Shown here one piece after another: positions 1,003-9,104 of a stretch of DNA of 10,822 nucleotides; position 1 is the stretch's first letter, and every line of letters starts with the position of its first letter. The DNA comes from Parcubacteria group bacterium Gr01-1014_20. GTDB taxonomy: Bacteria; Patescibacteriota; Minisyncoccia; UBA6257; 2-01-FULL-56-20. The stretch spans positions 74,930 through 85,751 of the forward strand of contig VMFW01000006.1 of NCBI GenBank assembly GCA_007376265.1, read 5' to 3'. Below the pieces are notes generated by a model, which was given only the letters and a program-made list of their open reading frames with translations, made no database searches and was not told the DNA's origin. A program made the translations under genes and the position numbers.

Positions 1003-1854
1003 TTAGAGTGTTCTGAAACGAAGTTTAACTTCGCGGACAAGATCATGGAAGGCCGGCATGGCTTGAATGTCGGGATGCCAGGCCAGATCCATATCGATGA
1101 GATTGTAGGTATCCTGAATCCTGGCGCCGGGAATGATGGCGCCACTCGCATCGTGATCCCGACCCATGAGCCACAAGGTGTCGGAGACACTGATGGCGGC
1201 CGAGACATCGTGAGTGACGACCACAATTGTCATATGTTCATCAAGAGCTGAAACCTCATTGATGAGTTTCGCAACTTGATCCACCATGACGGGATCGAGA
1301 CCAGAGAAGGGTTCATCCATGAGTAAGACGGTGGTGGAGCAGAGCAGTTGTTGCGCGATGGCTACACGCTGGCGCTGACCGCCGGAGAGTTGACAGGGGT
1401 AAAAACTGGCTCTGTCCCGGAGACCGAAACGCTCAAGCAGAGCCACGCATTCCACCTTTGCCTCTTGCTTGGTGTAGCCACCTTTTCGAGCCGCAACCAT
1501 GAGATTGCTCAACACCGTTCGATGTTCGAAGAGACGATAGTCTTGGGCGACCACTCCAGCCAATCCGCGTTTTACGGGAACCAGCTGGTCGGATCCGGAA
1601 ACTGCGACCAGAATTTCGCCGCTCACTTTTGCATCCTTAGCGGCTGGATCTAGCCCGGCCATCAGATTAAAGAGTTGGGTTTTGCCAACTCCCGATGGCC
1701 CCAGAAAACCAACCACCTGTCCCTGGGTTAGCCCGGGTCGCGTGATGTTTCGAACTTCGGCGTTGACACCGGCAAGGATCTGCTTCCCCCCTAGTTGCAA
1801 GTGAACATCTTTCACCTGCAGGAGGGGCTCTGCCAAGTCATATTGGAATGGCAT
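1003..1854 (-). CDS. ABC transporter ATP-binding protein (TauT/NitT family, SsuB/TauB/NrtD-like)
   Basis: Walker A GPSGVGKT, ABC signature LSGGQRQR, Walker B LLMDEP, H-loop VTHD. An AGGAGG SD sits 5 nt upstream of the ATG (1854). The start lies 2 nt from the permease stop, consistent with translational coupling. Confidence 0.92.
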   Translation of the reverse strand: MPFQYDLAEPLLQVKDVHLQLGGKQILAGVNAEVRNITRPGLTQGQVVGFLGPSGVGKTQLFNLMAGLDPAAKDAKVSGEILVAVSGSDQLVPVKRGLAGVVAQDYRLFEHRTVLSNLMVAARKGGYTKQEAKVECVALLERFGLRDRASFYPCQLSGGQRQRVAIAQQLLCSTTVLLMDEPFSGLDPVMVDQVAKLINEVSALDEHMTIVVVTHDVSAAISVSDTLWLMGRDHDASGAIIPGARIQDTYNLIDMDLAWHPDIQAMPAFHDLVREVKLRFRTL

Positions 1855-1856
1855 TC

Positions 1857-2669
1857 CTACCTCCTATCCAGGGTTAGTCCTGCATGTGGGCACGCGAGAT
1901 TTTTCAATCCGCCCCAGCCGTAGTCTTGAATGAGACCAACGGTGATGATTATAAACTGAATGGCGAAGACCGCGCCTAGATTGAGATGCTTGTTTTCGTC
2001 CAAGAGCAGTTTACCAATACCACCGCCAGAGCGCACCAAACCTTCGACCATGGTGAGCATCATCCAGCCAATAGCAGCGTTGTCACGAATGACATCAAAC
2101 GCTTTGTCGAGAGTGCCACGAACGTGGACCTCCCAGACTACTTCCCACTCACTCATGCGAAGGGTGCGAGCGTGGTCCTTTTGGTTCTTGGTGATTCGTT
2201 CGAGAACGTTCGACATGTTGGCGATGTTGAAAGCGCTCATGCCAAATGTCATCAGTGCAAGTTTTAAAGAATGTCCACCTGCAAAGACGCTCATGAAAAT
2301 CACTAAAAGGCCGGTGAGACCCAAGAACCTCGCCTTTGAAAGCGCTTCGGCGACTGGCCGCATAATGGGCATAGCCGTGGAGTAGCAAATCAAAAGCGAA
2401 AGAACTGTTGAGAGCGCGACCACTTGAAAGTTAGTCATTAAGCTCTTCCAAAGCTCAAAGGCCAGGCCTTCGTTTTGGTAGAGACTTATGAACGACTGGA
2501 AAACCTCCAAGGGCCGAGGGATGATGTCTGGTGCCCAGTAGATCCAAATCAGGAAAGCGCAAGCAATCCAGAACGTGATGAAAATTCCCAGGGTCCTTTT
2601 GGAGATGGCCCTGTTCGGAGCGAAGGCGTTTTTTAATTCAAACCAAACGCCGTTTCCGTTTCCGTTCAT
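1857..2669 (-). CDS. ABC transporter permease, TauT family (SsuC/TauC/NrtB-like); proposed start at the internal ATG 2669 (MNGNGNGVWFEL...), 271 aa
   Basis: Multiple TM segments. EAA-loop region DHARTLRMSEWEVVWEVHVRGTL...AIGWMMLTMVEGLVRSGGGIGKLL is typical of SsuC/TauC-type permeases. The ATG at 2669-2667 is preceded by GAAAGGAGAAGAA (SD with about 7-nt spacing). The 39 codons the track adds upstream (to 2786) lack an RBS and run through a hairpin. Confidence 0.88.
   Translation of the reverse strand: MNGNGNGVWFELKNAFAPNRAISKRTLGIFITFWIACAFLIWIYWAPDIIPRPLEVFQSFISLYQNEGLAFELWKSLMTNFQVVALSTVLSLLICYSTAMPIMRPVAEALSKARFLGLTGLLVIFMSVFAGGHSLKLALMTFGMSAFNIANMSNVLERITKNQKDHARTLRMSEWEVVWEVHVRGTLDKAFDVIRDNAAIGWMMLTMVEGLVRSGGGIGKLLLDENKHLNLGAVFAIQFIIITVGLIQDYGWGGLKNLACPHAGLTLDRR
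2652..2666 (-). repeat. Short tandem hexamer (GGAAAC/GTTTCC, about 2.5 copies) encoding NGNGNG at the permease N-terminus
   Basis: + strand reads cgTTTCCGTTTCCGTTcat. Confidence 0.5.
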
Positions 2670-2672
2670 TTC

Positions 2673-2698
2673 TTCTCCTTTCTTTCTGCTAGTTGCTG
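2673..2698 (-). promoter_or_regulatory. Conserved 26-nt translation-initiation cassette AGCAACTAGCAG(A)AAGAAAGGAGAAG upstream of the permease gene (copy 2)
   Basis: Matches the element at 6559-6584 at 25 of 26 positions; both end in the SD 7-9 nt before an ATG. Confidence 0.4.
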
Positions 2699-2762
2699 AT
2701 ATGAAATTGTTAAATGGCAGGAATTTCTCCCAGCCTCCCTTTATCGCTAAAGAGAAGCTCGG

Positions 2763-2805
2763 AAAAATGCCCAACTCATAAATCATAAAGACTTTATGAG
2801 TTGGG
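2763..2805 (-). terminator. Weak intrinsic terminator or attenuator hairpin between the SBP-OmpA gene and the ABC permease gene
   Basis: Minus strand: CCCAACTCATAAA-gtctttatga-TTTATGAGTTGGG (13-bp AT-rich stem) followed by CATTTTTCC. Probably only partial termination, giving read-through to the transporter genes. Confidence 0.4.
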
Positions 2806-2810
2806 CGGTG

Positions 2811-2826
2811 TTGCTAGACAATTACG
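2811..2826 (-). promoter_or_regulatory. Third copy of the AATTGTCTAG(C) motif, in the intercistronic region upstream of the ABC genes
   Basis: Minus strand reads gtAATTGTCTAGCAAC. Compare gAATTGTCTAGAAcc at 6992-6978 and aTTTGTCTAGCt at 6928-6938. Confidence 0.3.
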
Positions 2827-2838
2827 GCGGAACTTTCG

Positions 2839-4662
2839 TTACCGCTGGGGTGTGCCCATCACGATCTGAACGCGACGATTTTCAGCCAAAGCGGCCGAAG
2901 TGTTCGCGTGATTGATCGGATCGAGTTCGCCGTGCGGAACGATCTGAATACGGCCTTGTGGGAAGGTGGTCGAGCCTCTCGACTCAAGCCACGACTTCAC
3001 CGCGCGGGCGCGCTTGTCAGACAGGAGCAAGTTGGTCTCGTCAGTGCCGACGCTGTCGGTGTGACCGTGAATAACCAACTGGAGATCACCAGCCACAACA
3101 GCCGAGTTGTTGATCGCCTCCAAGATTGGGTAGGCGTCAGCCATGAATTCGGCCGAACCGCTTCGGAAGTTGATGGTGTAATCTCTACTGGAAACCATCT
3201 GCTTCAAAGAAGTCGTGGTGCCGGCAAACGAAGGCACTTCCGCTTTACCGACCGTCTTTACGAGGCGTTGAGCCGCGAGTATGTACTGCGGATCAAAGAC
3301 TTCGGAGATCGGAGGATAAGATGGAACCAGGTTCGGATACTGCTGGACGACGATATCGCCGAAGACCTTGTAGGTCGCGGCATAGATATTCGGTCCACCA
3401 GCTAATCCGAAGAGGTGCAAGTTGTCGGCCAAGTTATTGACCTTCGAACCGCCAAGCTCCACTCGTAAGCCCTGGATGTCGGTTTCGGTAACGCCATGGA
3501 AGTAGCGTTCCCAGTAGGCCGGACCTGTTTCGGCTTCGTTGTAGAGAATGTCAGAAATCTCGGCGGCTTTCCGAAGAGCACGAGGATAGGTTTTCACCTG
3601 ATCGCCACCCTCGAAGATACCGGCCAACATATTGGCGACGATTTCTTTGTTCTCACTGCACCAGCGCTTGATGCCGACGATAGTGTTTGGCATTTGGTAA
3701 CTGTACTCCTTGGTCGAAACAATAGAGACAATGCCACCACGTTGCCGAGCCACGATGACATCACCGGGAGTCCACGTTACCACTCCCTGAACGGTGATGG
3801 TGGTATCGCGACCAGTTTTCTTGCCGGCAATGACGATTGGACGAGTTTCGCTGTAGCCCTGCACATAGAGCAGAGCCGCATGCTTGTAGTCGTCCGCGGC
3901 CACCCAGTTAAGAGCGGTCGGATCGTAGGTGGTAACATCGGGATTGTTTGGAATCCCATTGTCCCCGCACCACTTGATCGCGATGTTCCAGTCGCCGTCA
4001 GTTAGGTAACCAGCAACGACACCACCGCGAGCCTTTTGAGCGATGCGTTTCCACTCTTCGGGGCCCATGAACTTGTCTTCGCCACGTGAATATCCGTGAC
4101 TACCAACAATCACAGCAGTGTATTCTGGGCCGAGCTTGATCAAGGACTTGTTGACTCCGGCGATAAAAGCTGGAGCTCCATCACCCATGATCGAAACAAA
4201 GGCACAGGTGGTGGCTGGATCTGGGTAGGGGTTACCGTCCTTTACGGCTTGGGCGAAATTGAGCAGCTCAAGCTTCATCTTGTCGGCGTTGTCTTCTCGC
4301 CGATAATTCAGGTTGACACTGCGTTCCGCCATGATTGATCCCTTGGTAGGAGCCAGCCCACCGTTGGCGAGCGCTCCTCCCATTTGAGAGTTCCAAGCCC
4401 AAATGAGCGTGGTGAAGGGCGGTGTGCTTAGATAGGCTGGTTCGATCGAAGGCAAAGGGCGCTCCGGAATGTTTGAGGCACTCGGGGCGCTCGGATCCTG
4501 ACCCTGGGGCAGATTGGCCTTTTGAGGCACGATCGCCTGCTTGATCTTGGCCTTGGGCAAACTGATGAAATCAAGTTGCACGGCGGCGAAGAACAACCCT
4601 CCAACAACCACGGCAATGATGAGGAAACGCGAGAACCCCGTCAAGTTTTTCCAGAAAGACAT
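2839..4662 (-). CDS. 607-aa envelope protein: N-terminal TM anchor, NMT1/NrtA/SsuA-like (TauT-family) substrate-binding core, C-terminal OmpA/MotB-like peptidoglycan-binding domain
   Basis: SD AAAGGAG lies 8 nt before the ATG at 4662. One hydrophobic helix FLIIAVVVGGLFFAAV follows residue 10. The core segment CAFVSIMGDGAPAFIAGVNKSLIKLG resembles the N-terminal beta-strand/helix of NrtA/SsuA SBPs (GFIALTDAAPLIIAKEKGFF). The C-terminus FRSGSAEF...LVIHGHTDSVGTDETNLLLSDKRARAVKSWLESRG...NRRVQIV is a classic OmpA_C/MotB motif. The gene sits immediately upstream of TauT-family permease and ATPase genes. The CDS call is firm; the domain calls are by-eye homology. Confidence 0.8.
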   Translation of the reverse strand: MSFWKNLTGFSRFLIIAVVVGGLFFAAVQLDFISLPKAKIKQAIVPQKANLPQGQDPSAPSASNIPERPLPSIEPAYLSTPPFTTLIWAWNSQMGGALANGGLAPTKGSIMAERSVNLNYRREDNADKMKLELLNFAQAVKDGNPYPDPATTCAFVSIMGDGAPAFIAGVNKSLIKLGPEYTAVIVGSHGYSRGEDKFMGPEEWKRIAQKARGGVVAGYLTDGDWNIAIKWCGDNGIPNNPDVTTYDPTALNWVAADDYKHAALLYVQGYSETRPIVIAGKKTGRDTTITVQGVVTWTPGDVIVARQRGGIVSIVSTKEYSYQMPNTIVGIKRWCSENKEIVANMLAGIFEGGDQVKTYPRALRKAAEISDILYNEAETGPAYWERYFHGVTETDIQGLRVELGGSKVNNLADNLHLFGLAGGPNIYAATYKVFGDIVVQQYPNLVPSYPPISEVFDPQYILAAQRLVKTVGKAEVPSFAGTTTSLKQMVSSRDYTINFRSGSAEFMADAYPILEAINNSAVVAGDLQLVIHGHTDSVGTDETNLLLSDKRARAVKSWLESRGSTTFPQGRIQIVPHGELDPINHANTSAALAENRRVQIVMGTPQR

Positions 4663-4733
4663 TGTGTTGCTCCTTTCTCGTTTCTTGCTGCTGGTTTGCT
4701 TTCACAAACTGATTGCTTTTAGAGCTTCTCGAA

Positions 4734-5810
4734 CTAGTTGCCGAGGAGACGACGATTACGAGCCTGACCAGAACTTGATTGAGCACCGGCCTGTCTCAGT
4801 AAGCTTCCAACCTGTTCAGGTTTAGCGGTGGCTATTGCCTGACCCTCAATGGCGCTTTGAGCTGCGAGCTGAGCCGTATGCTGCTTTTTCTCGCGGATCC
4901 TTTGCAGTAATTCCCGCGAGGCAGATGCGTCTTTGAGCTTGCGGACAGCAGTGACGTCTTTGACCATCGACATGACGGATTCTACTTCGCCCATGGACTG
5001 GTGAATGCGTCGCCGCATAAAGTCCATAGACATTTCGTACATTTCCTTCATGCTGTCTCCACCGATAACGTCACCAACCTGACGGGCGAGCTTTGCGGTT
5101 CTTTTCGCCGCTTCATATTGGCTGATGAGTTTTTGAGTGAAGAACTTCATGGTCTGAAGCTCGTTTTTCAAAAACTGTTCGAGCTCCTTTAGGACGTCTC
5201 GCCAACCCTCGAGAAGCTCTCGATGGCTGCTAATCGCCGGAGCAGTTTCCTTACAGAAGGCTAACTGCTGGGCGAGCGAATTGAAAAGCATCTCGTCTTC
5301 GCTGCTTGCCCAAACATCGTTGGGGCATGAGCGATGAACAAGCTCTTCAATCATGCGCTCGAATTCCGCAATCTGCTTATTGTTTTTCTCCTCCTCCGCG
5401 ATAGCCATCTCAAGTTCTCCGTTGGCTGCAGATTTTGCTGCAACCGCACTTTGAAGCTTGGGCTGAACGTGATCGGAGACGTAGCTCTGAGAGACTTCCT
5501 GTGGAAGCGCCTGAGCGATTGTTTTGGCGGCCATTCTAGCGAATACATTAAAAAGCGTTCGCCCGATGGCCCAGGTTTGTTTTTGCGATAGGACAAAGAG
5601 AACGATGATCGTCGTCACTGCCAAGCCGATAAAAGCAAGCAGGGCGCCGAACATGTCTGTCGCACGCGTGAAGAGTTCCGTTAGCCAGGGAAGGGCTTTG
5701 TAAAGAGCCGTCCCCCCGACCGCGAAAACTCCCAAGGTGCCGAGAAACCCCCAGAACTTTTGTTCTTTCGTGAAAATATCTGGGAGCTTGAACTGCACTC
5801 CTGTTTCCAT
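4734..5810 (-). CDS. 358-aa membrane protein with two N-terminal TM helices and a long helical cytoplasmic domain (start at METGVQF...)
   Basis: SD AAGGAAGGAG lies 6 nt before the ATG at 5810-5808. The ORF track's extra 44 N-terminal residues would overlap the upstream gene's stop and have no RBS. TM1 is FWGFLGTLGVFAVGGTALY and TM2 is ALLAFIGLAVTTIIVLFVL, followed by about 250 aa rich in E/K/Q/L/A. Family unknown (TelA/XpaC-like is only a guess). Confidence 0.8.
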   Translation of the reverse strand: METGVQFKLPDIFTKEQKFWGFLGTLGVFAVGGTALYKALPWLTELFTRATDMFGALLAFIGLAVTTIIVLFVLSQKQTWAIGRTLFNVFARMAAKTIAQALPQEVSQSYVSDHVQPKLQSAVAAKSAANGELEMAIAEEEKNNKQIAEFERMIEELVHRSCPNDVWASSEDEMLFNSLAQQLAFCKETAPAISSHRELLEGWRDVLKELEQFLKNELQTMKFFTQKLISQYEAAKRTAKLARQVGDVIGGDSMKEMYEMSMDFMRRRIHQSMGEVESVMSMVKDVTAVRKLKDASASRELLQRIREKKQHTAQLAAQSAIEGQAIATAKPEQVGSLLRQAGAQSSSGQARNRRLLGN

Positions 5811-5838
5811 TGGTGCTCCTTCCTTTCTGCTCTTAGAG

Positions 5839-6552
5839 TTAGATGTGTGCCGAGATGGCGCTGGCCAAATCTGACAACCGCCCCGAGATGACGTCGTAGG
5901 CACTCTTGATTCGAGTTCCCACGGCTTCTTTCTCGGTATCAATGCGCCCGACTTCGTTCTGGAGATTGGCCTCTTCAGTTTTCAAGGCTGCGATCTCCTC
6001 TTGAAGTTCGCGGATGGATTGCTCGTGAGCAGTGACCTCTTTCGAGATCGCGTTCAAGCGAGCATTCTTATCCTGAGCGTTTCCACGAGCTTCGGTTTCC
6101 AGCTGGGTGCCGAAATCCTGATTCAAGTTTTCGACAATCTGGATACACTCGCGAACAGAAGCCAGAATCTCGTTTGGCCTTACACCGTGCACGCTGTTTA
6201 AAGCCGCCGGAATCAGCTTGTCTTCTTCGGTGATATAGACACCGAGAGTCGTTTTCTGCTGAAGGAACTCCGCGTAACCTCGTTTGGTCACTCCTTTGAG
6301 TGCGTCTTCGAAATCACGCAGGAACTCTGGATCCGGCGTCGCGACACTTAATTTGGCTGTTGCCAAACCCGTTCTTGCCGACGGAGGCGGGACCACCGTT
6401 TTCGACGGTGTTCCACCGGCCAAAAATGTTCGGCGGGTTCGCGCGGGGGGCATTGTGGATGGAGCAATATTCGACGATCGTGGCGGAGCTTCCGGAGTAC
6501 CAGAGCCCACGTCCGACTCGGTGCTTTTCACGAACAGATCCTTGAAAGCCAT
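5839..6552 (-). CDS. 237-aa protein with a Pro/Ser/Thr-rich disordered N-terminus (about 75 aa) and a C-terminal coiled coil
   Basis: SD AAAGGAGAAG lies 7-8 nt before the ATG at 6552. The N-terminus MAFKDLF...PPARTRRTFLAGGTPSKTVVPPPSARTG... has low complexity. The C-terminal segment NARLNAISKEVTAHEQSIRELQEEIAALKTEEANLQNEVGRIDTEKEAV has heptad character. The stop TAA at 5839 lies 28 nt before the next start. Confidence 0.8.
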   Translation of the reverse strand: MAFKDLFVKSTESDVGSGTPEAPPRSSNIAPSTMPPARTRRTFLAGGTPSKTVVPPPSARTGLATAKLSVATPDPEFLRDFEDALKGVTKRGYAEFLQQKTTLGVYITEEDKLIPAALNSVHGVRPNEILASVRECIQIVENLNQDFGTQLETEARGNAQDKNARLNAISKEVTAHEQSIRELQEEIAALKTEEANLQNEVGRIDTEKEAVGTRIKSAYDVISGRLSDLASAISAHI

Positions 6553-6590: not shown

Positions 6591-6845
6591 CTAAGCTTTT
6601 TTCCCTGGGGGTCGAACGAACTTTGCGTTGTGAGCTCGCCAACCGGCGGCTTTTCCACGAATATCGCTAAGTTCGACTTTCGATCCACACTCGGGTTCGG
6701 CCACTTCTTTCCAGACACTTTTGTCCAGAGAAAAAGTAACTGAACCACCTTCCAGTTGATCAGATCGCGCCACGGCGTATTTGCCGTGAGGCCCATCGAT
6801 GACTTCCTGGACAATGCCTATGAATGCTTGGTTACGCTTAGCCAC
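6591..6845 (-). CDS. 84-aa soluble beta-rich (OB/SH3-like?) protein with a GTG start; first gene of the operon
   Basis: SD AGGAGG lies 6 nt before GTG (6845-6843). An overlapping ATG two bases upstream is out of frame. The sequence VAKRNQAFIGIVQEVIDGPHGKYAVARSDQLEGGSVTFSLDKSVWKEVAEPECGSKVELSDIRGKAAGWRAHNAKFV has alternating beta-strand character and no TM segment. Confidence 0.6.
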   Translation of the reverse strand: MAKRNQAFIGIVQEVIDGPHGKYAVARSDQLEGGSVTFSLDKSVWKEVAEPECGSKVELSDIRGKAAGWRAHNAKFVRPPGKKA

Positions 6846-6992
6846 ATTCTCCCTCCTTCTCCTGTGGGTTTTTGGGTTAGCGTTTTCAAAGGAAAACCAT
6901 TGCCTCCTTTCTTGGTTTCTTCCGTTATTTGTCTAGCTTTTATTTCAAAGAGCTAAACTATCTTTGAACCCAATGAGGGTTCTAGACAATTC
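6846..6992 (-). promoter_or_regulatory. About 147-nt structured 5' leader of the four-gene operon, with three stem-loops and a decoy SD/mini-ORF
   Basis: Hairpins lie at 6966-6982 (GAACCC/GGGTTC), 6944-6968 (TTCAAAG/CTTTGAA, whose arm overlaps the previous hairpin by 3 nt) and 6882-6897 (GTTTTC/GAAAAC). On the minus strand AAGAAAGGAGG lies 2 nt before ATG (6900-6898), followed by GTT TTC CTT TGA. Confidence 0.35.
6929..6989. promoter_or_regulatory. Inverted pair of TTGTCTAG / CTAGACAA motifs flanking about 45 bp at the start of the leader; candidate operator
   Basis: TTGTCTAG at 6929-6936 (+) and TCTAGACAA at 6981-6989 (+, equal to TTGTCTAGA on the minus strand). The latter sits at about +4 to +12 of the predicted minus-strand TSS. 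Confidence 0.35.
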
Positions 6993-6999
6993 GACTAAT

Positions 7000-7028
7000 A
7001 TATTACACGATTTATTTAAATTTGTCAA
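7000..7028 (-). promoter_or_regulatory. Sigma70-type promoter for the minus-strand operon (TTGACA-17-TAATAT)
   Basis: Minus strand: TTGACA (7028-7023), 17-nt spacer, TAATAT (7005-7000). The predicted TSS is near 6993. Confidence 0.5.
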
Positions 7029-7049
7029 GTAATGCCGGGGTAGCTGAAT

Positions 7050-7078
7050 TTGACATTTCTATTGTTTAATGTTATATT
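7050..7078 (+). promoter_or_regulatory. Sigma70-type promoter for the AAA+ gene (TTGACA-17-TATATT with an extended -10 TG)
   Basis: TTGACA at 7050-7055, 17-nt spacer, TGtTATATT at 7070-7078. This leaves a 34-nt leader to the SD ACAGGAGG and the ATG at 7119. It is back-to-back with the minus promoter (the -35 boxes are 22 bp apart). Confidence 0.55.
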
Positions 7079-7118
7079 TCCAGACAGTTTTTTCACTCGT
7101 TAACACAGGAGGTCTTAT

Positions 7119-8729
7119 ATGAAAAAAGTGGAGAAGCCCCAAGAATCTATTCTTGCCGGCTTTGCTCGTGAAACTGGGGAAATGATTGGCCGAATTCAGA
7201 GCATGCTTGAACCGAAGGAGGCAACTTTTACCCGAAAGCCTGGGGATGAATCATTACCAGTCGATCGGGAGGTAATCGAAGCTCAGCTTGACTTGCTTGG
7301 AGAACACCAAAAAATGCTTTCACAGATCGGTGAATCCCCGAGAATCTTGGCCACCGTGCTTGAGGTTTTGAGAACGGATGGCGAGGAAGCGAAAGTCATT
7401 ATTTTTTCGAGTGGGCGGAAACTAAGCGTCCCCCTTCTGGAGGGTCTTGAGGATCGCCAAGGCAAACTTCAAGCCGGTGATCTCGTAGAAGTTTCTCTCG
7501 ATACGGAACAGATCATCCAAAAGGCGAATTTCTTACCGAGAGGCGACGTGGTGACAGTAAAAAACATCATATCCCCTTCTCTCATTGAAGTTCAACACGG
7601 AGACACTCCGAAGGTCGTCTATCGAGGCAGGTTTTCTGACAATGGTCAGGCAATCGAAGCCGGAGACAGGGCATACCTAGACGAAGGTGGAATGATCGTC
7701 GTTGCAAATCTCGGAAAAGATGAAAGTCGATTCCGGGTTACTGATTTCCGTCGAGTGGAATGGGACGAGATTGTTGGGCTTGACCGCGTTAAGCAGGAAC
7801 TAATGGACGCGGTCATCTACCCAGCCCTTCACCCCGAACTCTATCGACGTTACCGTCAGACCTTTGGTCGCGGAGTGGTTCTGCTTGGACCTCCCGGATG
7901 CGGAAAGAGTATGCTCGCAAGAGCCGTCATCACCGAGATCGCGAATCGATATGGTCCCGAAGGACTAGCTTCTGGAGCGATCTTTCTCAAAGGTCCCGAA
8001 TTTCTAACAAAATACGTCGGGGATTCCGAGGAGATCATTCGCTCGATTTTCGAGAGGACCAGGCGCCACAAGAAGAAGTTTGGTTGGCCAGCGATCGTGG
8101 TGGTGGATGAAGCGGAGGCGGCCTTTCGCAAACGCGGAAGTGGTAAGAGTTCCGACGTTGAAATTACCACAACCACAACCTGGAACGCGGAAATGGACGG
8201 CATGGAGGAGTCTGGCGCGTTTTTTATCCTAGCGACCAACAGAGTTGATCTCATTGACGGGGCAATCCTGCGAGATGGGCGAGTTGATTTGAAAATCACA
8301 ATCGACCGGCCGAACCAGGAGAGCGTTCGAGGAATCTTTGAGAAAAACTTCACCGGCCTTCCTCTTCAGGAGACAGCAGCCGAACTCGCAGCTTTCGCGG
8401 CGCATGAATTTTTCTCTGACCAATTCCCACTTTTCGAGATTAAGCGAATCTCCGTTCCGGAGCCACTCAAGTTTTCACTTCGTGACATCGTAAACGGAGC
8501 GATGATTGTGGCCATCGCGAGTGCGGCGGCCAAGGTCTCGATTCGTCGAGAACGTGAAACCGGAAAGGAATCGGCGATTACCCGAGAGGACGTCCGGCGG
8601 GCCATTGCCGACAAGCAAGCAGAGTGTTTGCGTCTCGACTGGAGTGACGAATTGGCTGACTTTACCCACGATTTTAACCTGGATGTCATTGACATCAGCA
8701 AGGTTGTCCAGGGTCAAACTACGAAGTAA
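7119..8729 (+). CDS. arc: AAA+ ATPase of the ARC/Mpa (proteasome-associated ATPase) type: N-terminal coiled coil, tandem OB-like interdomain, one AAA module; no GQYL tail
   Basis: Walker A GPPGCGKS, Walker B VVVDEAE. The segment GKSSDVEITTTTTWNAEMDGMEESGAFFILATNRVDLIDGAILRDGRVDLKITIDRPN closely parallels the Mpa/ARC segment [20 protein letters not shown]...[28 protein letters not shown]. Residues 1-70 are helical (LEPKE...QLDLLGEHQKMLSQIG). Residues about 75-215 are beta-rich with G/D turns (OB-like). The C-terminus is ...VVQGQTTK. Confidence 0.9.
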   Translation: MKKVEKPQESILAGFARETGEMIGRIQSMLEPKEATFTRKPGDESLPVDREVIEAQLDLLGEHQKMLSQIGESPRILATVLEVLRTDGEEAKVIIFSSGRKLSVPLLEGLEDRQGKLQAGDLVEVSLDTEQIIQKANFLPRGDVVTVKNIISPSLIEVQHGDTPKVVYRGRFSDNGQAIEAGDRAYLDEGGMIVVANLGKDESRFRVTDFRRVEWDEIVGLDRVKQELMDAVIYPALHPELYRRYRQTFGRGVVLLGPPGCGKSMLARAVITEIANRYGPEGLASGAIFLKGPEFLTKYVGDSEEIIRSIFERTRRHKKKFGWPAIVVVDEAEAAFRKRGSGKSSDVEITTTTTWNAEMDGMEESGAFFILATNRVDLIDGAILRDGRVDLKITIDRPNQESVRGIFEKNFTGLPLQETAAELAAFAAHEFFSDQFPLFEIKRISVPEPLKFSLRDIVNGAMIVAIASAAAKVSIRRERETGKESAITREDVRRAIADKQAECLRLDWSDELADFTHDFNLDVIDISKVVQGQTTK

Positions 8730-8732
8730 CTT

Positions 8733-8766
8733 TAAGCCCCGTGCATTACGCGCGGGGCTTTTTCTA
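8733..8766 (+). terminator. Rho-independent terminator of the AAA+ gene
   Basis: AAGCCCCGTGC-attac-GCGCGGGGCTT followed by TTTTCT. The stem motif is the same as in the terminator at 500-525. Confidence 0.8.
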
Positions 8767-8790
8767 TCCCCACCAACAAATAGCGAAAAA

Positions 8791-8826
8791 CAAAAAGCCC
8801 CACTTAACGGGGCTTGTTCTTTTTGC
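8791..8826. terminator. Bidirectional intrinsic terminator: a backup for the + strand and the terminator for the minus-strand cyclase-tgt unit
   Basis: aAAAAGCCCC-acttaac-GGGGCTTgttcTTTTTg. A-run before and T-run after, so it works on both strands. Confidence 0.7.
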
Positions 8827-9025
8827 TGCGTGGGAAACTGGGAATAATGGCTCGAATGCCGTTGATCAGGTCATTAACGATTCTCACGAACCGATCCGGA
8901 GAGTTAATAGCTTGAAGTGAAAGCGGGGTCCAATAAGTTTTAATAGGATCTCTTCCCGTGGCAGGAACTTCGTTTTTGCTGGTTTTACTTTCCGTTGGTT
9001 CTGGTACGGTTTCCTGACCCTCCAT
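8804..9025 (-). CDS. Possible 73-aa hydrophilic small protein (MEGQETVPEPTESKTSKNEVPATGRDPIKTYWTPLSLQAINSPDRFVRIVNDLINGIRAIIPSFPRSKKNKPR)
   Basis: An AAGGTGG SD lies 7 nt before the ATG at 9025. A TTG six nt upstream is the alternative start given in the ORF track. The stop TAA (8806-8804) lies in the loop of the bidirectional terminator. There are no TM segments and no recognisable motif. Confidence 0.3.
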   Translation of the reverse strand: MEGQETVPEPTESKTSKNEVPATGRDPIKTYWTPLSLQAINSPDRFVRIVNDLINGIRAIIPSFPRSKKNKPR

Positions 9026-9104
9026 AGTCAACCCACCTTGATAAGGGTGATCTGTCTGCTTGGTGAACTAAATCCAGCTTAATACTCTCGGGAATAAATT
9101 TCAA

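Follow-up and report, generated by a model that had tools for sequence, protein, structure and literature searches.

The closest described relatives of the protein studied here are the proteasomal ATPases Mpa and ARC. They are treated as regulators of the actinobacterial proteasome that were gained along with the 20S core, bacterial proteasomes being placed in the actinobacteria (PMC6466877). Mpa requires a GQYL motif for docking, and its coiled coil binds a helix of Pup that includes residues 35–49 (PMC6466877). We have analyzed an Mpa/ARC-like AAA+ ATPase encoded in a 10,822-nucleotide stretch of DNA (the window) from a tiny groundwater bacterium, Parcubacteria group bacterium Gr01-1014_20 (contig VMFW01000006.1, assembly GCA_007376265.1). 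The gene occupies positions 7119–8729 of the + strand, encodes 536 amino acids, and is read divergently from an operon of envelope genes. A sequence-only reading had described it as an unfoldase that matches the proteasome-associated family closely, lacks a docking tail, and may have a role unrelated to the proteasome.

We find that the ATPase belongs to a large, tail-less sister family of Mpa/ARC. Our preferred reading, to which we give a probability of about one half, is that it is a proteasome-independent, membrane-proximal, Mpa-like unfoldase that would act on two proteins of the divergent operon, p358 and p237, as an accessory of the envelope module.

The ATPase and its family

The ATPase shares the complete domain organization of Mpa. 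Pfam recognizes the AAA domain alone (PF00004, residues 253–396, E = 6e-27), but the best-scoring model, the NCBIfam proteasome ATPase TIGR03689, aligns near full length, with residues 58–502 matching positions 29–481 of 512 (E = 1.3e-79). An AlphaFold2 (AF2) model made with 23 homologues in the input (predicted local distance difference test score, pLDDT, 81.5) has helices at residues 8–30 and 50–70, beta domains at 75–136 and 144–199, an AAA module at ~210–415 and a C-terminal lid/beta domain. When this model was compared with the PDB using Foldseek, the top 30 matches were all chains of Mycobacterium tuberculosis Mpa (E ~1e-35, ~480 aligned columns, TM-score 0.67–0.76, 26–29% identity). Rpt subunits formed a second tier (E ~1e-23). 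A profile of the family aligns with Mpa in one stretch (profile 7–466 of 490 with Mpa 69–568 of 609), whereas with VAT and p97 the AAA cores alone align. Model, fold search and profile therefore agree on the arrangement that characterizes Mpa/ARC, i.e. coiled coil, tandem OB domains and a single AAA module. That part of the sequence-only reading stands. The word 'closely' overstates the match, because the TIGR03689 score of 268.3 bits lies below the equivalog cutoff of 504.75 bits.

The features can be followed along the + strand. The Shine-Dalgarno sequence AGGAGG is at 7107–7112. The N-terminal helices (7140–7328) comprise residues 8–30, a low-confidence linker, and the coiled-coil helix 50–70 extending to the proline of GESPR (71–75). 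In the alignment this proline falls where the Mpa coiled coil finishes at its own proline junction, the family consensus there being L..P...ATV. The two OB-like domains (7341–7715) are seen as strands in the AF2 model and lie within the single-stretch Mpa alignments. In the classical AAA module (7746–8363; PF00004) the motifs correspond to invariant columns of the family: Walker A GPPGCGKS (7887–7910, residues 257–264), pore loop 1 KYVG (8010–8021, 298–301), Walker B VVVDEAE (8097–8117, 327–333), sensor-1 ATNR (8232–8243, with N374) and the arginine fingers RDGRVD (8271–8288, 385–390). The catalytic and pore motifs are intact. The C-terminal lid (8376–8708 in the model) contains a beta insert, is collinear with the C-terminal domain of Mpa, and finishes with the strand DVIDISKVV. 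At residues 344–361 (8148–8201) the sequence reads SSDVEITTTTTWNAEMDG, which is unusual in that ...T.VP.FLAEMDG is found there in the family and in Mpa. This run lies in the pore-loop-2/following-helix region, is a property of the window clade, and is kept in orthologues of 73% and 71% identity.

An exhaustive search of 1.84 billion cluster representatives found at least 150 clusters that match the ATPase at 254–351 bits and 34–42% identity, most of them to within a few residues of its C-terminus (family alignments extend to residues ~528–533). Mpa itself scores 166–176 bits. We constructed a neighbor-joining tree of the AAA domain with 100 bootstraps. The family plus Mpa formed a clade in 99/100 replicates and the family without Mpa in 87/100, with Cdc48 D1/D2 and FtsH outside; the window clade is on a long basal branch. 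The sequence-only reading had suggested a phylogeny of this domain against Mpa, ARC, Cpa, PAN and VAT. The tree that was run places Mpa closest among Mpa, Cdc48 and FtsH, PAN and Rpt being absent from it. The ATPase is nearer to the family than to Mpa, aligns with it over its full length including the C-terminal domain, and falls within its clade. It is not orthologous to Mpa, and belongs instead to a large family that is sister to the proteasomal ATPases.

The hosts of the family include many lineages of the Candidate Phyla Radiation (CPR; Peri-, Woese-, Parcu-, Yanofsky-, Sung-, Uhr- and Saccharibacteria), many Bacteroidales metagenome-assembled genomes (MAGs) and a few Proteobacteria. Members are also found on many IMG/VR contigs, including some of 180–530 kb. 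Clear phage genes are present on some of these, for instance the phage-type DNA polymerase in locus L093, and others may be misclassified CPR fragments. A related subfamily labeled 'proteasome-associated ATPase' occurs in cultured phages, Brevundimonas phage vB_BpoS-Strzyga (L171:2566–3978) and P0035. It keeps the AAA and C-terminal domains, but the coiled-coil/OB region is replaced by a Cys-rich N-terminus (CGDPNCMECNP). The Brevundimonas phage ATPase has neither OB domains nor a small partner protein, and we found no tractable cultured system with the three-gene unit discussed below. Our literature search, which took in DUF1360, TelA/VWA/OmpA/AAA neighborhoods and UBact, found no description of the ATPase family, its neighborhoods or that unit.

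Other AAA systems are more distant. PAN and Rpt1–6 share the coiled coil, OB, AAA layout, provide the second-tier fold matches, and are detected with PRK03992 (E = 4e-42). However, they have one OB domain where the ATPase has two, and an HbYX tail that it lacks. The ATPase has no penultimate tyrosine, and scores 144.8 bits with PRK03992 and 134 bits with TIGR01242, where 500 bits are required for each. Cdc48, VAT, p97 and Cpa share the classical-clade AAA module, and give the highest summed PDB sequence scores because they have two AAA domains each. Their AAA domains are in tandem, however, with a double-psi-barrel N-domain, and only residues ~207–417 of the ATPase align with them. They fall outside the family-plus-Mpa clade, and the single-AAA protein studied here reaches 141 of the 803 bits required by TIGR01243.

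Separation from the proteasome

In contrast to Mpa, the ATPase has no docking tail. Its C-terminus is ...DVIDISKVVQGQTTK. We aligned it with other family members and with an Mpa sequence that is 100% identical to PDB 7PX9_A. The alignment is collinear to the end, and DVIDISKVV corresponds to the last strand of Mpa, RIVYIRTLV. The ATPase stops 6–7 residues beyond this strand with the short end QGQTTK (8709–8726, +), whereas Mpa runs for ~20 more residues to ...NLGQYL. There is thus no flexible tail bearing the GxYx (GQYL) motif for 20S docking, and no HbYX. Just 2 of 169 family members examined have a penultimate tyrosine, and many have the recurring ending G-I-x-K-[LV]-x-Q-x-x-x. Orthologues of 73% and 71% identity terminate in ...QGQTTK and ...QTQTTK. 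A sequencing artefact at the C-terminus is excluded because both share this end. A canonical tail in orthologues would have counted against the sequence-only reading; these two are tail-less too, and the ending VVQGQTTK that it had noted is borne out by the Mpa alignment.

The proteasome genes are also missing from the surroundings. Pfam annotation of 27.7 kb of the source contig, including the window, revealed no 20S subunit, Dop/PafA or Pup. The earlier observation that the window has no dop, pup or prcAB therefore extends to this larger region, in which the ATPase is surrounded by ordinary chromosomal genes including Tgt, a cyclase, superoxide dismutase (SOD), AP endonuclease, a sigma factor and UvrD. 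The other Pfam-annotated family loci likewise contained no recognizable Pup-ligase or proteasome gene. On clustering the neighbors in 58 family loci no annotated conserved cluster corresponded to a ligase or peptidase, the other ~50 loci not being scanned for these; clusters C2 and C10 were identified separately as DUF1360 and the small protein described below, and cluster 13 was rejected as an antisense open reading frame (ORF) artefact. Genomic association with dop, pup, prcB, prcA or pafA was thus not found in the 27.7 kb or among the annotated conserved neighbors of the clustered loci. No 20S proteasome is known from CPR bacteria, Bacteroidales or viral contigs. Two ORFs close to the ATPase were rejected. 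One of 73–75 amino acids (8804–9031, −) was considered as a Pup, but it ends in ...KKNKPR, matches no family and is on the other strand, past a terminator. The other (8741–8920, +) overlaps the terminator and was not accepted as a gene.

The comparison with Mpa/ARC (PDB 7PX9, 5KWA and 5KZF) can now be drawn together. The likeness comprises full-length collinearity, an aromatic pore loop, the conserved proline after the coiled coil, and the sister position in the AAA tree. The ATPase differs in its shorter coiled coil, the lack of the Mpa-specific OB2 insert, its 26–29% identity, the absence of the tail, and the lack of linkage to dop, pafA, pup or prcBA within the 27.7 kb. The family moreover occurs in CPR bacteria, Bacteroidales and viral contigs, not in Actinobacteria, and is linked to membrane and envelope genes. 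It could be argued that this is nevertheless a true proteasomal ATPase, with a Pup- or UBact-proteasome locus encoded in another part of the genome. Mpa gives the best matches by profile and by fold, and the record of an identical protein (from a Parcubacteria MAG at NCBI) is automatically labeled 'proteasome-associated ATPase'. Yet the TIGR03689 score is below the equivalog cutoff, the tail is absent here and in 167/169 family members, no Pup-proteasome gene is seen in the 27.7 kb or other annotated family loci, and the hosts are concentrated in CPR bacteria, Bacteroidales and viral contigs. We regard this explanation as very improbable. The role apart from the proteasome that the sequence-only reading proposed is well supported, and family-wide.

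Unfoldases of Mpa architecture normally feed a peptidase, and the ATPase might therefore serve some other, unlinked protease (ClpP, HslV, an Anbu/BPH-type enzyme, Lon or an HtrA-like protein) by docking that does not use HbYX. The conserved C-terminal strand and short end motif of the family could be taken in that sense, and Trypsin_2 genes lie upstream of the ATPase in two loci. However, the linkage to Trypsin_2 is confined to those two loci, no peptidase was recognized among the annotated conserved neighbor clusters, and the conserved C-terminal residues are the last strand of a folded domain rather than a flexible tail. This too we consider improbable.

In many relatives the ATPase gene is accompanied by a small protein. 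In at least 32 distinct family loci a protein of 55–84 amino acids is encoded directly downstream on the same strand. It has a basic N-terminus (M-x-Q-D-R-F-R-K-K...), an acidic helix (~IDDvL~EID~~L) and a C-terminal end that is either CxC (CGCW, CGC or CTC) or, in Bacteroidales, acidic. We compared its profile with that of 100 genuine Pup sequences using HHalign, with 30 column-shuffled controls. The small protein matched Pup residues 35–49 (ETDDLLDEIDDVLEE) with a score of 26.6, a probability of 67.5% and a pairwise E = 5e-5, whereas the best shuffled control scored 10.2. Only this profile-profile test gave a specific signal. The small proteins resemble Pup (PF05639) in size, in a charged and probably disordered N-terminus, in the acidic helix and in being encoded next to the ATPase. 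They differ in lacking the GGQ/GGE C-terminus, ending in CxC or acidic residues instead, and in having no ligase or deamidase nearby.

The CxC ending goes together with a downstream DUF1360 membrane protein containing a CxxC motif. It is found in 17/17 loci that have the DUF1360 gene, compared with 0/15 that lack it. This co-occurrence suggests a cysteine-mediated membrane tether, through a metal or a disulfide. In CPR bacteria and IMG/VR contigs there is a three-gene unit comprising the Mpa-like ATPase, the small protein with CxC and a DUF1360 protein with CPYCTSHW. The genes often overlap, and examples are found at L010:6408–6968, L017:11078–11663, L029:8058–8631 and L088:11407–12043. The window, together with L014, L031, L033 and L037, has neither the small protein nor DUF1360.

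These observations lead us to a tentative idea on the family as a whole, that it is a widespread, proteasome-free and ligase-free membrane counterpart of Pup–Mpa. In this speculative scheme an unconjugated small protein, its basic N-terminus serving as a handle, would in most members bind the coiled coil and be tethered through CxC and DUF1360; in lineages like that of the window the adaptor would have been lost and the motor rewired to p358, the two then co-diversifying as matched alleles.

The envelope module and its link to the ATPase

The divergent unit on the − strand comprises six genes rather than the four given in the sequence-only reading, i.e. p84, p237, p358, OmpA-607, an ABC permease and an ABC ATPase. 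The first, p84 (6591–6845), is a small soluble protein with no family hit, whose identity is 72% with its counterpart in locus L168 and 89% in L173. The second gene, p237 (5839–6552), encodes a soluble protein with a Pro-rich and probably disordered N-terminal part of ~90 amino acids and a coiled-coil C-terminal part. The long disordered N-terminus suggested earlier for this protein is consistent with its composition, the fraction of Pro, Ser, Thr, Ala and Gly being 0.53 in the first ~90 residues and 0.31 in the rest. Syntenic counterparts of p237 are found in L014, L037, L007, L168 and L173.

The third protein, p358 (4734–5810), is a candidate partner or substrate of the ATPase. It has one or more N-terminal transmembrane (TM) segments, a cytosolic helical hairpin at residues 77–244, and a disordered tail with the terminal motif RRLLGN. 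The mechanical ORF is longer (4734–5942, 402 amino acids), starting at a TTG and overlapping p237; the ATG at 5810, giving 358 amino acids, is backed by gene callers and homologues. An AF2 model made from three sequences has pLDDT 61.5 overall and 80–92 in the hairpin. A fold search with p358 returned only generic helical-bundle and BAR matches with E > 0.05, and a deeper homologue search found only two close relatives.

OmpA-607 (2839–4662) has an N-terminal membrane anchor, a large extracytoplasmic domain and a C-terminal OmpA-like peptidoglycan-binding domain (Pfam OmpA, E = 4e-14), and has at least 384 metagenomic relatives. It is followed by a TauC/NtrB-like ABC importer permease (1857–2669) and an ABC ATPase (1003–1854), and these two adjoin OmpA-607 homologues in nearly all loci. 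PHROGs and PADLOC searches with the ATPase and its neighbors returned generic AAA, OmpA or coiled-coil matches only.

The spacer between the ATPase and the operon is 273 bp (6846–7118), and contains two back-to-back predicted sigma-70-like promoters with −35 boxes 21 bp apart. That of the ATPase (7050–7078, +) is TTGACA-17-TATATT, TG-extended and matching at 11/12 positions, while that of the operon (7000–7028, −) is TTGACA-17-TAATAT with 10/12. Both are conserved in L168, falling inside blocks that are kept in its unusually well conserved spacer. The bidirectional control region of ~270 bp proposed from the sequence is therefore upheld. Long stretches of the spacer and operon leader are the same in L168, such as ~44 nt at 6920–6965 (TTCCGTTATTTGTCTAGCT.TTATTTCAAAGAGCTAAACTATCT), and these stretches are better conserved than the flanking coding DNA. 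They may be an operator or other regulatory site. A search of the control region with Rfam gave no match, and the predicted fold of the leader RNA was not significant (z = −1.6).

A strong intrinsic terminator (8734–8760, +; 11-bp stem, 8 GC, T-run) begins 5 nt past the stop codon of the ATPase. Since it follows the stop codon in this way, the gene is monocistronic, with its own promoter and terminator. The region 8734–8815 contains two adjacent GC-rich hairpins (8734–8760 and 8795–8815, the latter read on both strands) with a common arm AAGCCCCG/CGGGGCTT. The pair probably acts as bidirectional terminators between the convergent ATPase and p73/Tgt genes.

The association of the ATPase with the module (a p237-like protein, a p358-like protein, OmpA-607, permease and ABC ATPase) recurs in several arrangements. 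The ATPase is divergent from the module in the window, L168 and L173; it is first on the same strand in L014 (Yanofskybacteria) and L179, last on the same strand in L037 (Gallionella), and ~5 kb away in L007. L168 and L173 preserve the divergent layout as well as the two promoters. In the reciprocal direction we examined the best 80 of at least 384 metagenomic OmpA-607 loci. Permease and ABC genes adjoin OmpA-607 in nearly all of those with enough downstream sequence, but only 2/80 (L173 and L179) carry a family ATPase, or 1/20 of those with at least 6 kb on both flanks. Because of this low count the five-gene module is taken to be autonomous, with the ATPase an accessory recruited in some lineages. 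The link between ATPase and envelope is therefore real but facultative, most family ATPases being found in other contexts. The divergent coupling proposed at the outset thus holds for the layout and promoters in these relatives, and not as a general property of the module.

This distribution can be read in another way, with the ATPase a general cytosolic unfoldase or chaperone whose position beside the operon is circumstantial. Most OmpA-607 modules have no ATPase, most family ATPases are elsewhere, and the gene is monocistronic. Yet several independent lineages, differing in gene order, have the module next to a family ATPase, for which chance is no explanation. The back-to-back promoters are conserved, and the p358 hairpin diverges together with the ATPase allele, as described below. 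We consider it unlikely that the ATPase is a general unfoldase of this kind.

The module (1003–6552; L173–L252) is widespread: at least 384 metagenomic loci have it, among them high-GC contigs as long as 480 kb. It seems to constitute an uncharacterized system in which an extracytoplasmic protein anchored to peptidoglycan is combined with an ABC importer. In L199 and L237 its two helical proteins are downstream, not upstream. In Bacteroidales loci the ATPase is preceded by a related cluster of nine genes, which in two CPR loci flanks it. This cluster includes an NMT1-OmpA protein, a VWA protein, an OmpA protein, a TM-plus-helical protein, TelA, an NMT1 solute-binding protein, a permease and an ABC ATPase. 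In these Type B loci (L021/L033 and others, from Bacteroidales, Sungbacteria and Parcubacteria) there is a conserved cluster of nine to ten genes including the Mpa-like ATPase. The VWA protein is secreted, and the acidic small protein is found in the Bacteroidales Type B loci only. OmpA-607 is related to both OmpA proteins of the cluster (C7/C9), with HHalign probabilities of 96–98% over ~270 columns. We also asked whether p358 is homologous to TelA, and whether p237 corresponds to C6 of the Type B loci. Neither relationship was detected by hidden Markov model (HMM) searches or HHalign.

Allele divergence and a possible mechanism

Comparison with L173 provides the best indirect support for an interaction between the ATPase and p358. 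L173 has exactly the synteny of the window, and most of its proteins are closely similar (cyclase 82%, Tgt 88%, p84 89%, OmpA 92%, permease 94% and ABC ATPase 90% identity). The control region has 80% DNA identity and the flanking DNA 78–82%. By contrast the Mpa-like ATPase of L173 is only 42% identical, uniformly across its domains (47% in the AAA core), although it still groups with the window clade as a deep sister. DNA similarity ends at 7113, six bases before the ATG, and returns at 8690, ~40 nt before the stop codon. Between these limits no similarity is detectable (7114–8689 against L173:2312–3940). Because the breaks are so sharp the ATPase ORF is regarded as a swapped or hyperdivergent allele, and it behaves as a hypervariable cassette.

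The only other gap in DNA similarity within the operon is at 5122–5492, which corresponds to the cytosolic hairpin of p358 (residues ~106–229). The hairpin is 44–52% identical in L173, compared with 78% for the TM part. In L168, which has an ATPase of the window's lineage (73% identity), the hairpin is the best-conserved part of p358 at 73–84%. The divergence of the hairpin along with the ATPase allele would be expected if the two interact. It is equally compatible with both proteins being targets of diversifying selection. Envelope-protein quality control and delivery of substrates through the coiled coil, which the sequence-only reading had proposed, are candidate roles, and this divergence in L173 is the best indirect support for them.

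The cassette bears on a further explanation, in which the ATPase and p358 form a fast-evolving unfoldase for phage–host or inter-microbial conflict or defense, possibly phage-derived, with the envelope module a mere platform or neighbor. Sharp boundaries within flanks of 80–94% identity, the long branch of the window clade, and the facultative, accessory-like presence beside the module are all in keeping with such a role. The family is abundant on IMG/VR contigs, some with phage genes, and in phage-like contexts, and there are weak generic matches to the anti-phage AAA ATPases IteA/IetA and TRIP13. However, the PADLOC (E 1e-9 to 1e-14) and IteA matches involve the AAA core alone and are far under their cutoffs (36.5 against 510 bits for IteA). 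No IetS- or CD-NTase-type partner is present, and no nuclease, toxin or other effector is linked. The genes around the window are of the ordinary chromosomal kind (Tgt, SOD, AP endonuclease, sigma factor), and some of the IMG/VR contigs may be misassigned pieces of CPR genomes. A conflict role therefore seems rather unlikely to us.

Returning to a membrane-proximal unfoldase serving the envelope module, a plausible sequence of events can be proposed. The core of this reading, which the evidence supports, is an intact, tail-less AAA+ unfoldase of the Mpa type, presumably hexameric, that is independent of the proteasome and of Pup ligation. In this lineage it is an accessory to the envelope module, whose parts are an ABC importer, an extracytoplasmic protein anchored to peptidoglycan, and two helical proteins that are cytosolic or membrane-anchored. 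The face formed by the coiled coil and OB domains would dock the cytosolic hairpin and/or terminal tail of p358, and possibly the disordered N-terminus of p237. A disordered end would then be threaded by the KYVG pore loops. Hydrolysis of ATP would unfold, extract or disassemble p358 or p237, and so reset or turn over the membrane complex. In most relatives recognition appears to proceed through the dedicated small protein with its acidic Pup-like helix. That adaptor is absent here, and so recognition would be direct. We infer the hexameric state, the identity of the substrate and the outcome, whether remodeling or hand-over to an unlinked protease.

There is a functional analogy with Vps4/CdvC and ESCRT-III, FtsH and Msp1, in that an AAA ring would recognize the terminal motif or hairpin of a membrane-associated helical protein and disassemble or extract it. 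The relevant features of p358 are its TM anchor, the length of its helical hairpin, and the motif conserved at its extreme C-terminus. The homology is limited to the AAA core, however. The CdvC model scores 99 of the required 650 bits, and the ATPase has no MIT domain, protease domain or TM anchor. Furthermore, p358 has no detectable similarity to ESCRT-III, PspA or TelA.

A number of points weigh against the preferred reading. The interaction of the ATPase with p358 and p237 is a prediction from sequence comparison, and the co-variation of hairpin and ATPase involves a single allele pair. The p358 model is weak outside the hairpin, and neither p237 nor p358 has detectable homology to TelA, C6 or any solved fold. 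With a family ATPase in only 2/80 OmpA-607 loci, the module can evidently do without it. The small protein is absent from the window, L001, L014, L037, L031 and L033 even at E ≤ 10; its similarity to Pup in Pfam, NCBIfam and PDB sequences is sub-threshold (E 0.03–0.6), and the matching segment is a 15-residue acidic amphipathic helix. The tree contains one Mpa sequence and neither PAN nor Rpt. The search for proteasome genes spanned 27.7 kb of the contig, not the whole genome, and Lehmann et al. are said to have reported UBact/proteasome-type genes in some Parcubacteria and Yanofskybacteria in 2017.

The cassette-like swap and the divergence of the hairpin lead to a concrete prediction, that binding between the ATPase and p358 should be allele-specific. 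The analysis also indicates that the Mpa architecture exists as a large separate family outside the known proteasome hosts, repeatedly wired to membrane and cell-wall modules. If confirmed, this would provide a function for many genes that are automatically annotated 'proteasome-associated ATPase', and a first handle on the widespread five-gene envelope/ABC module. It would also offer a testable route to the origin of Pup–Mpa recognition. If the tentative view of the family as a membrane counterpart of Pup–Mpa is true, that recognition would be older than pupylation and the bacterial proteasome, or have evolved separately from them, and CPR bacteria, Bacteroidales and large phages would all make use of it.

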